From assembly GCA_963771465.1 (NCBI GenBank), contig CAVYTU010000014.1:512001-576000 (forward strand): a stretch of DNA of 64,000 bases, written 5' to 3'. Positions 54,903 to 58,444 of this stretch are shown one piece after another. A program made the translations under genes and the position numbers. Every line of letters starts with the position of its first letter. Within the stretch, counting starts at the first letter, position 1. The notes under the pieces were generated by a model. That model saw nothing but the letters and a program-made list of their open reading frames with translations. It searched no databases and was not told the origin of the DNA. The stretch comes from an uncultured delta proteobacterium. Its GTDB lineage: Bacteria; Desulfobacterota; Binatia; UBA9968.

Positions 54903-54917
54903 GCAAACTTGAGGCCA
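54903..54917 (-). promoter_or_regulatory. Sigma54 promoter of pilA
   Basis: TGGCCTCAAGTTTGC = TGGC-N7-TTGC, about 140 nt upstream of pilA. Confidence 0.75.
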
Positions 54918-55100
54918 TGTTCAGGAGCCAGCGGCAAACCTTGAAAAAACTCGCCAACAGTTCCAATCCTTGCCGAACGCGAACATGGAATCTTAGACTT
55001 TTTAGGTACTTATCGCGCCCCCGAAATAATGGGGTAATGCTGGTAAGATTTGCTGAGATTGAGTGAAGTCCCGGATTGCGTTAATTGGTATTACTCGAAA

Positions 55101-55117
55101 GTGACAAAGTTTGTTAC
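55101..55117. promoter_or_regulatory. Candidate enhancer (UAS) for the sigma54 activator
   Basis: Imperfect palindrome GTGACAAA-G-TTTGTTAC about 185 bp upstream of the -24 box. Confidence 0.35.
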
Positions 55118-57165
55118 TGCTGATCCGAGGGTTGTTCAATTAGAGAGGCTGATTTTGAGTTTAGCATTTCGTACTTTTCGAGCCGATGGCGCAGTGAGCG
55201 GTAATTGATACCGAGGATTTCGGCGGCTTTCTTCTGCACCCCCTTTGCGCGTTTCAACGCACCCAAAAGAATGCATTTCTCGTGTGTTTCGAGTTCGACG
55301 TCTAGCGACAGCCCTTTGCTAAAGAAGTAGTCCGCGCCTCCAGGCGCGGTTTGTTCGAAGGTATCTACGTCTTCCATAATCGGGACGGTTTTCACATGCT
55401 GGGGTAAATCGTCTTCGGTTAGGATATTCTTGTTCGTAACAGCAACGGCATGTTCAAGAACATTCTCCAATTCCCGAACATTTCCCGGATACGCGTAATT
55501 CATCAGGTGCATGAGCGCACCGCTGGAAATTTCTTCGACATTTTTGCCGTGCGAGTCAGCGAATTTTTTTAGAAAAAAGTGAGTGAGTAATGGTATATCC
55601 TCTTTTCTACTGCGGAGCGGCGGCAAGACCATCTGGACAACGTTCAAACGATAAAAGAGATCCTCGCGAAATCGTCCTTCTTCGAGTTCTTTACGCAAAT
55701 CGCGATTGGTTGCCGAGATGACTCGGATGTCCACCTTAATTTGCTTGCTGCCACCCACCGGCGTGAAACTCTTTTCTTGGAGAACTCTCAATAATTTGAC
55801 TTGAAGGTGAAGCGGCAGTTCACCGACTTCATCTAGAAATACTGTTCCCTGGTCGGCTTGTTTGAAAAGTCCGGTGTGATCCGAAACCGCGCCGGTAAAG
55901 GCACCTCGAACATGGCCAAAAAGTTCGCTCTCGATCAGCGTCTCGGGAATCGCACCGCAGTTAACAGCGACAAAAGGTTTATCTTGGCGTGGGCCGTTAA
56001 GATGAATTGCGCGCGCCACCAGCTCTTTCCCTGTACCGCTTTCGCCGGAGATGAGAACGTTGGTGCTACTCGCCGCGACTTTCTGGATTAATTGATAAAT
56101 CTTCTCGATACCACCATTCTTGCCAATGACTCCTTCAAAGCGAAATGCGGAGTTATCACCGTTCATGGAAAGCGTCGGCAATGGCACTTCTCTGGCTCGG
56201 CGTAGTTCTTCCTCAAGCCGGACCTTCTCTTCGATTTGTTTCTGTTTGGTAATGTCTTCAAGAATTGCGACGAAGCCGATGGTTTCCTCTTGGGCGTTAC
56301 TGAGGGGTGCGAGGGTTAGACGTATCTGCTTCTGAACTCCCTGGGGTGCGGAAAACGGCAACTCGTCGGTTATAACGGTCCCGACTCTACGGTTGCGTTG
56401 AAAGTCATAGCTCAAACCCGGAAAAATTTGATCTATACGCTTGCCTTTAACGTTTGCTTCGTCAAGTCCGGTTAGGGTCTGTGCATGTGGGTTGAAAAAA
56501 TTTATTTGTCCTTCCGCGGTCGTGATAGCTACACCGCTGCCGATTCCCTGCAACAACGCATCTTTGAAGGCGTCCAACTCTAAATAGTCAATTTGTTTTT
56601 CTTTTAGCAGCTTTTCAGTTGCGCTTAGTTTGTCTGCGAGAAAGCCGCTCAACCACGCGATGACGAAAAAACTGCCGACATTGAGCACCACGGTAACGAT
56701 CGGCGACCAATAAAGCGGTGCGCCGTCGCCAGCGTGATACCAATAACGCGACCACAAAAGTAAGGCGGTGTAACAAACACTCGAGCTCGCCGCAGCGATA
56801 AACGCGCCTCGGTAGAAGAGCAAGATCGCAGCGTTCATCACCGCGAGGTTATAGAGGAATGAAAACGGACTGGCGATATCGCCGGTGATCCAGATAATCC
56901 CCGTGATTAGCAATACATCAAAACTCACTTGAACATGAGCTAAGAGCCGGAGATTGTGAAACCTAGCTAAGAACAATACCGAGGCAACCGAGATGACGTA
57001 GGCGAGAATCAGCGGCACCGAAAGATTTAGAAGATAATTCAGATCCCACTCGGCTTGGAAGAAATGAAAAAGCGCCGATGCGCCCAAAAAGAATGACAAG
57101 ATGACTACGCGCAGAAGCAGCAGCCAACGAATCTTCTCGGTCAAATTTATGCGTTCGTCGCTCAA
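55114..57165 (-). CDS. Membrane-bound sigma54 activator: PilS-like TM + PAS fused to PilR-like AAA+/Fis-HTH
   Basis: About 6 TMs with WL..LR, D..L.T....TG...[40 protein letters not shown]. No H-box, no REC. Start uncertain (ORF open to 57282). Confidence 0.88.
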
Positions 57166-57217
57166 AGTGAGTAGTTTGTTTAACGTCGGTTCGCAATTCG
57201 GTGAATCGGTATCAGCA

Positions 57218-58444
57218 TCAGTTGCCAACGAGCGATCCCATTTGGAAAATTGGCAGATACATGGCGACGACCAAGCCACCAAGAACGACGCCTAAAACAA
57301 CCATGATCGCCGGCTCCATCATGGCGGTCAAATTGTTGACCGCGTCGTCGACCTCTTCTTCGTAAAGCTCGGCGACTTTCTTAAGCATCCCGTCGAGCCC
57401 GCCGGTGCTTTCTCCGACAGCGACCATCTGGCAGACCAGCGGCGGAAAAATTTTACTTTCCCTCAGCGGATCGGCCACCGTATTCCCTTTACTAATGCTT
57501 ACTCGGCTCTCCATGATCGCTTTCTCGACAACTTTGTTGCCGGCCGTTCTACCGGTGATCGCCAACCCGTCCAGGATAGGCACGCCGGAACTCAGCAATA
57601 GCGACATGTTTTGGGAAAAACGTGCCACCGCCACTTTCCTCAACAAATCGCCGATGATCGGCATCCGTAAGAGCAGGCCGTCAATCTGCATGCGCCCCGG
57701 GGGCGTTTTATAATAGGCGGAGATCCCCATCGTCACGCCAACCCCAGCCGCGATCAATAGATACCAATAGGCGACAAACCAGTTACTAATATTGATGCAT
57801 ATCTGGGTCGGCGCCGGCAGCGCCTGACCCATGCTGCCGTAGAGTTCGGCAAAAACGGGAATGACAAAAATCATCAGAACCGCGACGACTATCACCGCCA
57901 CACCGACGATGGCGCAAGGATAGATCATCGCGCCTTTGACTTTCTTTTTCAGCCGATTGGATTTTTCGATGAACAAAGCGACCCGGTTGAGAATGGTATT
58001 CAGGATACCGCCGGCTTCGCCGGCCTCAACCATGTTGACGTAAAGATCGTCAAAAATTTTAGGATGTTTGCGCAAGGCATCCGCCAGTGTGCAACCTCCC
58101 TCGACATCCTTGCGGACAGTCGTCAGCGTGTTACGCAGCAACTTGTTTTCTGACTGTTGTCCTAAGATATCCAAGCATTGCACGATCGGCAGACCGGCGT
58201 CGATCATCGTGGCCAATTGGCGGGTCGCTAAGGAGAGATCTTTGGTCGTAACCTTGGCGCCGAAACCGGGAATCGTTATCTCTTTATCAAATCCTTTGCC
58301 TTTTTCCCGAACCCGATTTGCGATCGGGCGTATCCTTTGTTCCCGCAAGCGCGTGAGCGCCGCTTCTACACTTGGTGCCTCGAGGTTATCGCCTTTGATC
58401 AGTCGCCCTTGTGCGGTCCTGCCTTCCCAAACAAATATAGCCAT
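57218..58444 (-). CDS. pilC: Type IV pilus platform protein PilC
   Basis: TRQLATMIDAGLP, AGE.GG.L, AM.YP, GESTG.LD.ML, EP, MYLPIF. Confidence 0.93.
   Translation of the reverse strand: MAIFVWEGRTAQGRLIKGDNLEAPSVEAALTRLREQRIRPIANRVREKGKGFDKEITIPGFGAKVTTKDLSLATRQLATMIDAGLPIVQCLDILGQQSENKLLRNTLTTVRKDVEGGCTLADALRKHPKIFDDLYVNMVEAGEAGGILNTILNRVALFIEKSNRLKKKVKGAMIYPCAIVGVAVIVVAVLMIFVIPVFAELYGSMGQALPAPTQICINISNWFVAYWYLLIAAGVGVTMGISAYYKTPPGRMQIDGLLLRMPIIGDLLRKVAVARFSQNMSLLLSSGVPILDGLAITGRTAGNKVVEKAIMESRVSISKGNTVADPLRESKIFPPLVCQMVAVGESTGGLDGMLKKVAELYEEEVDDAVNNLTAMMEPAIMVVLGVVLGGLVVAMYLPIFQMGSLVGN

Follow-up and report, generated by a model that had tools for sequence, protein, structure and literature searches.

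PilS-PilR is the textbook two-component system for matching pilin synthesis to the pool of pilin in the membrane. Can one protein with neither a kinase core nor a receiver take the place of both partners at a type IV pilus locus? The question is raised by a 64,000-nucleotide stretch of an uncultured delta proteobacterium of the Binatia (GenBank assembly GCA_963771465.1, contig CAVYTU010000014.1, positions 512,001 to 576,000; the whole of this stretch is the window below). A preliminary description, made from the letters alone, had pointed to one uninterrupted open reading frame where pilS and pilR would be expected. We found this to be so: the region 55114..57282 of the minus strand is open without interruption over 722 codons from its first TTG, with pilB and pilC before it and pilA after it. 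An alignment of 33 proteins of the same architecture pointed to codon 40, a TTG at position 57165, as the likely start (683 residues); the recorded gene callers chose codon 19, giving 704. On balance we favor the reading that the product is anchored in the membrane and activates the adjacent pilin gene independently of phosphorylation, as a short-circuited PilS-PilR whose membrane domain would read pilin.

The domain content of the protein was as had been described. A Pfam scan, in which domains were listed at E ≤ 0.01, found a PilS-like membrane domain and a PAS domain followed by a Sigma54-interaction AAA+ domain and a Fis-type helix-turn-helix (HTH), and gave no match to HisKA, HATPase_c, or Response_reg; the protein strings quoted in the preliminary description, GAFTGA included, are all present in the translation. 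Searches against NCBIfam returned generic activator models only, each below its cut-off, with no PilR model among the 25 matches listed. When we compared the protein by BLASTP with a canonical pair from another genome of the phylum, residues 47-381 aligned to the PilS kinase with 31% identity over 353 aligned positions. This alignment passed through the post-PAS helix and stopped ~12 residues before the histidine of the AHEIRNP H-box, so the helix does lie where PilS enters its H-box, as claimed earlier. Residues 377-704 matched the neighboring PilR of that genome from PilR residue 135, past its receiver and linker, and the output half as a whole had 52% identity to two PilRs, this one among them. 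Judged by these alignments, the fusion combines the sensor module of PilS, made up of six membrane helices, the PAS domain, and the opening turns of the DHp helix, with the output module of PilR; the kinase core and the receiver are deleted. Because the HisKA/HATPase core and the receiver are absent, a His-Asp phosphorelay within the protein is impossible, which supports this part of the preliminary description.

The output half appears fully equipped. Across 33 fusions, Walker A (GESGTGKE) and Walker B (FLDE) were unchanged, and in the sigma54-contact loop (ESELFGH..GAFTGA) G460, T463, G464, and A465 were invariant, with A461 and F462 kept in at least 90%; from the invariance of these three motifs we conclude that the AAA+ engine is intact. 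The sequence features of a bacterial enhancer-binding protein are present: the Sigma54_activat AAA+ domain, the GAFTGA loop, a C-terminal HTH, rpoN in the genome, and a -24/-12 promoter at a plausible target. By its motifs, then, the fusion would be a sigma54 activator, and ATP-dependent activation is predicted.

That the frame is an assembly chimera, or a frameshift artefact of separate pilS and pilR genes, is practically inconceivable; we found nothing in its favor and consider it ruled out. In a word-indexed search, each of the 120 listed clusters (76-100% identity) contained PF25323, PF00158, and PF02954 and none contained HisKA, HATPase, or REC. These clusters derive from many contigs and sources, such as metagenome-assembled genomes (MAGs) named 'Candidatus Binatia bacterium'. 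Furthermore, a kinase core and a receiver would not fit into ~683 residues. Fifteen public runs from 12 studies (11 once a possible source study was excluded) of soil, rhizosphere, and groundwater contained half or more of the words sampled from 54300-57300, and for four of these runs contigs were compared to the window. One contig from an independent soil DNA run, X2, corresponded to 55805-56634 with 0 differences, thus bridging the PAS/AAA+ junction at 56128-56238, the point at which read support had been asked for. Contigs of an RNA-library run, X11, covered 54333-55121, 55474-56212, and 56372-57232, which is most of the regulator gene plus pilA; 55122-55473 and 56213-56371 were without cover, as was the entire regulator gene in a further run, X16. 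RNA-library contigs may contain DNA, and transcript ends are not visible from contigs; the fusion gene and pilA are probably expressed. The databases label the architecture 'PilR' or 'sigma-54 interaction domain-containing protein', and the JGI label is 'response regulator PilR', which is wrong in mechanism because these proteins have no receiver.

The DNA between the regulator and pilA carries the elements that such an activator would need. We aligned 14 loci from the stop codon to the pilA start and saw three kept blocks (a palindrome, the promoter, and a purine block) within otherwise diverged sequence. The TGGC-N7-TTGC promoter noted in the preliminary description lies at 54917-54903, and its TGGC and TTGC were unchanged in 14/14 loci; exactly one such site was present per intergenic region in 13/13 loci, 163-198 nt past the stop codon. 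The palindrome TRACAAA-N-TTTGTCA overlaps the stop codon of the regulator gene itself and was likewise kept in 14/14 loci (alignment consensus TaACAAa.tTTGTCA), being a perfect TGACAAAGTTTGTCA in those with a TGA stop codon. In the 6.9-Mb genome the sole exact match to TRACAAANTTTGTYA was the window's own palindrome. Five sites in the genome had one mismatch, compared to one for a reversed control, and no pilin gene was found near any of these five. One locus, L105 (G000:C14:331372-334386), has a one-mismatch palindrome with a TGGT-N7-TTGC ~80 bp away, and on these sequence features may be a second target of the regulator.

The palindrome was also found outside this fusion family. With at most two mismatches it lies ~100 bp 5' of a TGGC-N7-TTGC and a pilin gene in three loci with canonical PilS kinases (L086, L089, and L097), and it stands directly after the stop codon of an unrelated, independent fusion, L096, against a chance expectation, by our own arithmetic, of ~0.015 per 4.5-kb locus. 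Its presence in canonical loci and in L096 would tie the site to the PilR-type HTH and not to one fusion family.

Close relatives share the fusion between pilC and pilA, so neither of the two sequence-based grounds for refutation named in the preliminary description (a junction without read support, and relatives that all have separate intact pilS and pilR) held up. We compared 19 loci from named MAGs: 15 have the whole fused frame, three have it truncated where the contig stops, and in one (L081) it is broken. All 19 had pilB and pilC 5' of the fusion, the matches in L081 being partial. A pilin gene followed in 13 of the 15 loci with complete frames, and the remaining two end <300 bp past the stop codon. 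The broken frame of L081 has 270 codons; either decay of this copy or poor assembly may account for it. The window's genome has one copy of rpoN (Sigma54_DBD match, 4e-63), two prepilin-peptidase-type genes, and three secretin genes. Its single 6TM_PilS match above the cut-off is the fusion; a weak second match proved to be a HisKA_3 kinase and was rejected as a PilS. The fusion is thus the sole PilS-like sensor and the sole PilR-clade activator that we found in this 99%-complete genome.

How might such a protein be controlled? Since kinase and receiver are absent, control of the activator must be direct. In the mechanism we propose, the C-terminal HTH would bind the palindrome at the regulator's own stop codon, and the AAA+ ring would remodel sigma54-RNA polymerase at the pilA promoter with the protein remaining in the inner membrane; co-translational insertion of PilC, the regulator, PilA, and the YfhO-like protein encoded after pilA could keep the locus near the membrane. 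The membrane domain, as in PilS, would read the unassembled pilin pool. While pilin is plentiful, the sensor dimer would hold the tethered AAA+ domains back from assembly into an active ring; once pilin is depleted, they would come together and transcription would go up.

The coupling between the two halves would more likely be control of oligomer state over a flexible tether than a rigid helix. In a full-length structure model with a mean pLDDT (predicted local distance difference test) of 73, the membrane helices, the PAS domain, a helix at 345-363, and the AAA+ domain were formed, with pLDDT <50 at 367-385; a sensor-only model was better, at 81.5. From the PAS D-I/V/L-T motif to Walker A, 16 fusions had between 43 and 71 residues of very different composition. 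Within the close family, the alignment of 33 fusions showed the post-PAS helix kept and the next ~12 residues variable. The PilR linker helix was retained in only some fusions, such as L096, while the window's group has the PilS-derived helix and the low-confidence spacer. It is this low confidence and variability that favor oligomer control through a flexible tether over a rigid helical relay. The preliminary interpretation stands as regards a phosphorelay-free PilS/PilR fusion before pilA; its 'allosteric' coupling, if taken as rigid, is less likely with such a spacer.

A variable spacer of low model confidence would also suit proteolytic release, in which the membrane form is an inactive precursor and a protease cut in the spacer (~364-385) frees a soluble AAA+/HTH activator. 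Other membrane-tethered transcription factors are released in this way, and a DNA-bound hexamer with six membrane helices per subunit would presumably be sterically demanding. We nevertheless regard this explanation as very unlikely: we saw no protease gene or conserved cleavage motif at the locus, the lack of conservation in the spacer speaks against a specific cleavage site, and in one fusion, P0159, only ~12 residues separate the PAS domain from the beginning of the AAA+ domain.

In the direct-control scheme, the signal is proposed by analogy with PilS. According to the portion of PMC6058289 available to us, pilin autoregulation by PilS involves contact of its six membrane segments with PilA, and PilR becomes hyperactive when pilA is lost. 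We infer that pilin would be the signal here too from the homology to PilS, the synteny, and the residues shared with PilS kinases: R58, Q118, D122, T133, G134, S138, Y144, G159, A164, and Y171 are each conserved in at least 85% of the 14 fusions compared and in at least 85% of the 24 PilS kinases. The protein could also be this sigma54 activator of pilA, anchored in the membrane, yet answer to another signal (redox, a small ligand, or membrane state), or its membrane domain could serve for placement only, for instance at a pole, with largely constitutive activity. The Pfam family 6TM_PilS also includes GrtK, a sensor of ammonia, and RegB (PMC12918730, in the text available). The PAS domain is well conserved and like ligand-binding PAS folds (a fold search with the sensor model matched the LOV and FixL PAS structures at Z 12-13.6), and a flexible, variable spacer suits loose coupling; the available part of PMC6058289 also cites the PilS membrane domain for polar targeting. 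On the other side, the sensor half is most closely related to PilS kinases encoded next to PilR or pilin genes, the residues that define the membrane domain of PilS kinases are retained, and tight synteny with pilA is conserved. We judge a different signal or mere placement to be unlikely, if a serious contender. Co-folding of the membrane domain (196 residues) with PilA, from 11-row alignments of each, scored 0.00 in two runs without controls and is uninformative either way. In a structure search with the six-helix domain (model md0867f3f029d, residues 1-198), the best match was 8wcn_B, the membrane part of ImcA from a cryo-electron microscopy structure of P. aeruginosa (Z 13.6, root-mean-square deviation 3.8, 180 residues aligned, 9% identity), a match in the range of a possible common helical arrangement.

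Several points weigh against a membrane-anchored activator that reads pilin. A single palindrome is kept at pilA, and many enhancer-binding activators use several sites. In one fusion of the window's class, L109 from genome G076, the next gene encodes an ABC transporter, not a pilin. The ~20 residues of pLDDT <50 between sensor and AAA+ domain, in a spacer variable in length and composition, give a signal no evident path, and the presence of GrtK and RegB in the 6TM_PilS family shows that its members also sense other cues. RNA-library contigs (X11 54333-55121; X16 54678-55041) reach at least 120 nt 5' of the predicted -24 element; the upstream stretch 54918-55121 could be read-through from the regulator gene, the product of a second promoter, or DNA carry-over. 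Finally, the one precedent that we found, gonococcal Rsp, is regarded as a remnant with no effect on pilE transcription (PMC6528607, available text).

Rsp is a chimera of a PilS receptor and a PilR output part, described as a fusion of nps and npa, and as a PilS/PilR fusion it has been in print since 2000 (as cited in the available parts of PMC10269533 and PMC6528607). The statement in the preliminary description that this architecture was not known for pilin regulation was therefore overstated, the more so as the architecture is abundant in databases. By the descriptions in these texts, Rsp resembles the window's fusion in joining an N-terminal PilS membrane part to a C-terminal PilR output. 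The family described here differs in its intact rpoN, its conserved sigma54 promoter and upstream site, and its long-term conservation, and the break points may differ as well; pilE in pathogenic Neisseria is read from an RpoD promoter (PMC6528607, in part), and one source states that Rsp represses pilin expression (PMC10269533, in part). The window's gene could, as proposed for Rsp, be a decaying two-component remnant without present function. We think this highly improbable: frames were intact among relatives whose sensor halves are 59-73% identical, with L081 the one exception in 19, the catalytic motifs are invariant, rpoN is intact, the promoter and the palindrome are conserved, and no other PilS or PilR was found in the genome. 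The kind of protein is already known from Rsp; new here is that the form is conserved, recurrent, and apparently functional, and that its sigma54 system is intact. In the full-text literature searched, we found no description of the fusion architecture as a working family or of a class of membrane-anchored sigma54 activators.

Compared to PilS-PilR of P. aeruginosa and many other type IV pilus bacteria, the fusion has a homologous six-helix and PAS sensor, a homologous sigma54 AAA+/Fis HTH output, and a sigma54 promoter with a candidate upstream site before the major pilin gene. It differs in being one polypeptide with a membrane-tethered activator, without kinase core or receiver, and hence without phosphotransfer or a kinase/phosphatase switch. 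In receiver-AAA+ activators of the NtrC1/DctD type, the AAA+ domains are kept in an inactive dimer by the dimerized receivers and a coiled-coil linker. By analogy, the fusion may share the logic that a dimeric N-terminal module restrains ring assembly and that its rearrangement or removal frees the ring; a restraint of this type would explain why viable proteins were repeatedly obtained after deletion of the receiver. The membrane activators ToxR, TcpP, and CadC have an N-terminal winged-helix DNA-binding domain, a single membrane helix, and a periplasmic sensor, and act on sigma70 polymerase; the fusion, in contrast, has six helices, a PAS domain, an AAA+ domain, and a C-terminal Fis HTH, with a predicted ATP-driven sigma54 mechanism. 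These activators are like it in joining membrane span and DNA-binding domain in one polypeptide as inner-membrane one-component activators, and the available text of PMC10269533 suggests that transmembrane transcription regulators may evolve from two-component systems, citing Rsp. Desulfovibrio vulgaris has 15 one-component enhancer-binding proteins with PAS or GAF sensors (PMC4641369, in part), which likewise join a sensory domain straight onto AAA+/HTH without a receiver. In that text their sensors are described as cytoplasmic, whereas the sensor of the fusion is a polytopic membrane domain of histidine-kinase lineage.

As a more general proposition, a polytopic kinase-type sensor may directly gate a membrane-tethered sigma54 AAA+ ring as a natural, recurrent, phosphorylation-free form of pilin autoregulation, with the activator working from the membrane on its own neighboring locus through a site at its own stop codon; we put this forward tentatively, as somewhat short of an even chance. 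If true, the PilS membrane/PAS module would be a portable switch with no need of the kinase for output, and an enhancer-binding protein could remodel RNA polymerase with 36 membrane helices anchoring each hexamer; the fusion would then clearly exemplify a sigma54 activator anchored in the membrane. A conserved sensor and output without a phosphorelay would also offer a natural minimal system for how binding of membrane pilin becomes output: with one protein, one promoter, and one pilin, the state of the sensor must appear directly as activator activity.

The fused architecture appears to have arisen at least twice. In a maximum-likelihood tree of AAA+ cores, 14 fusions grouped with four PilRs (93/92), and 16 other activators of the window's genome lay outside this group. 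A quick AAA+ tree to which five more activators were added, these being ones dropped earlier by a motif filter, placed all 21 genome activators on the other side (Shimodaira-Hasegawa-like approximate likelihood ratio test, SH-aLRT, 94). Nine fusions, the window's group, had a branch of their own in the AAA+ tree (91/93) and in the sensor tree (97); the five remaining fusions fell among PilRs in the former and among PilS kinases in the latter. A single origin of all fusions was rejected, as the AAA+ trees force at least two state changes; the sensor-half tree alone is compatible with one. In-frame deletion across the end of pilS and the start of the adjacent pilR, repeated, is plausibly the simplest reading of the origin, and would show how deletion between neighboring genes can turn two-component systems into one-component systems by a simple, repeatable evolutionary route. 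P0159 has an output half 56-65% identical to receiver-bearing PilRs, but as a whole is only ~40% identical to other fusions.

We searched representatives at 50% identity exhaustively with residues 40-385 and obtained 72 matches with E-values <1e-30. We scanned the domains of 24 of the 150 listed matches (19 of 600-775 residues and the five top ones of normal length) and found nine fusions, 14 HisKA kinases, and one protein pairing 6TM_PilS with a beta-lactamase domain. This last protein, P0214 (751 residues, on a 308-kb metagenome contig), has a beta-lactamase-family domain replacing the kinase and is thus another sensor rewiring. We also sampled 301 genomes of the phylum, and the sensor half had a match in 221 of them. 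All of the 12 top matches of normal length were H-box kinases, the eight longest frames checked were four fusions and four kinases, and a ninth long frame, that of G076, was a fusion. The sample therefore holds at least six fusions among the 221, a lower bound, as frames of 610-640 residues and 73 unlisted matches lay outside the check. In the ESM Atlas, the match of rank 2 was a 54-member cluster of ~677-residue proteins with a feature score of 0.99, for which the commonest phylum was Bdellovibrionota; this hints that the fused architecture extends beyond Binatia-like bacteria. L098 (genome G020), an independent fusion, has the Walker A variant GGSGTGK in place of GESGTGK and is followed by a pilM-like gene.

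The features of the locus are collected in Table 1. Besides pilB and pilC, a pyruvate phosphate dikinase gene lies upstream on the same strand, and no pilT was found between pilB, pilC, the fusion, and pilA in the window.

Table 1. Features of the fused regulator gene and its surroundings, with positions in the window
Feature	Position	Strand	Description
pilB, type IV pilus assembly ATPase	58524..60257	-	577 residues; Pfam T2SSE 1.8e-143 and MshEN
pilC, platform protein	57218..58477	-	419 residues; Pfam T2SSF 1.9e-66
Fused PilS-sensor/PilR-activator gene	55114..57282	-	longest frame 722 codons; likely start 57165, 683 residues
Six-helix PilS-like membrane domain	56608..57147	-	residues 46-225; Pfam 6TM_PilS (PF25323) 1.1e-17; modelled as helices
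Cytoplasmic PAS domain	56239..56565	-	residues 240-348; Pfam PAS_9/PAS/PAS_4
Junction	56128..56238	-	residues 349-385; kept post-PAS helix from the start of the PilS DHp helix, then variable spacer
Sigma54-interaction AAA+ domain and lid	55387..56127	-	residues 386-632; Sigma54_activat (PF00158) 386-551, 6e-73; AAA_lid_14 557-632
Fis-type helix-turn-helix	55171..55293	-	residues 664-704; Pfam HTH_8 (PF02954) 1.3e-10
Palindrome overlapping the regulator stop codon	55102..55116	-	TAACAAACTTTGTCA; candidate upstream activator sequence, ~193 bp 5' of the -24 GG
Sigma54-type promoter before pilA	54903..54917	-	TGGCCTCAAGTTTGC; -24 GG, -12 GC; TGGC-N7-TTGC
Purine block, pilA leader	54852..54862	-	consensus AAGGAGGTGA, in the window TTAGGAGGTGA; >85 nt 5' of the start codon
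pilA, type IV major pilin	54375..54764	-	129 residues; Pfam N_methyl 8.6e-10; leader MNKLRLQNQGG, then FTLIELL
Terminator-like hairpin 3' of pilA	54301..54340	-	between pilA and the YfhO-like gene
YfhO-like polytopic membrane protein, directly 3' of pilA	51828..54242	-	804 residues; Pfam YfhO 6e-24

The third kept block upstream of pilA, the purine block, was present in a form like its consensus in most of the 14 loci. The leader that contains it gave no consensus RNA fold across these loci (0 pairs predicted), and no conserved short reading frame was found at the block. An Rfam scan of 54250-55250 returned only a small-RNA match at chance level (E 0.98), and a scan of 54200-55300 for sigma70-type promoters returned one site, on the opposite strand and at chance level. 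Downstream of pilA, the YfhO-like gene was found in the same position in 10 related loci with 38-85% identity; its product is possibly an enzyme that modifies the pilin and varies along with it. A gene for a PMT_2 (ArnT-like) glycosyltransferase, at 50004-51767 on the plus strand, adjoins the YfhO-like gene.

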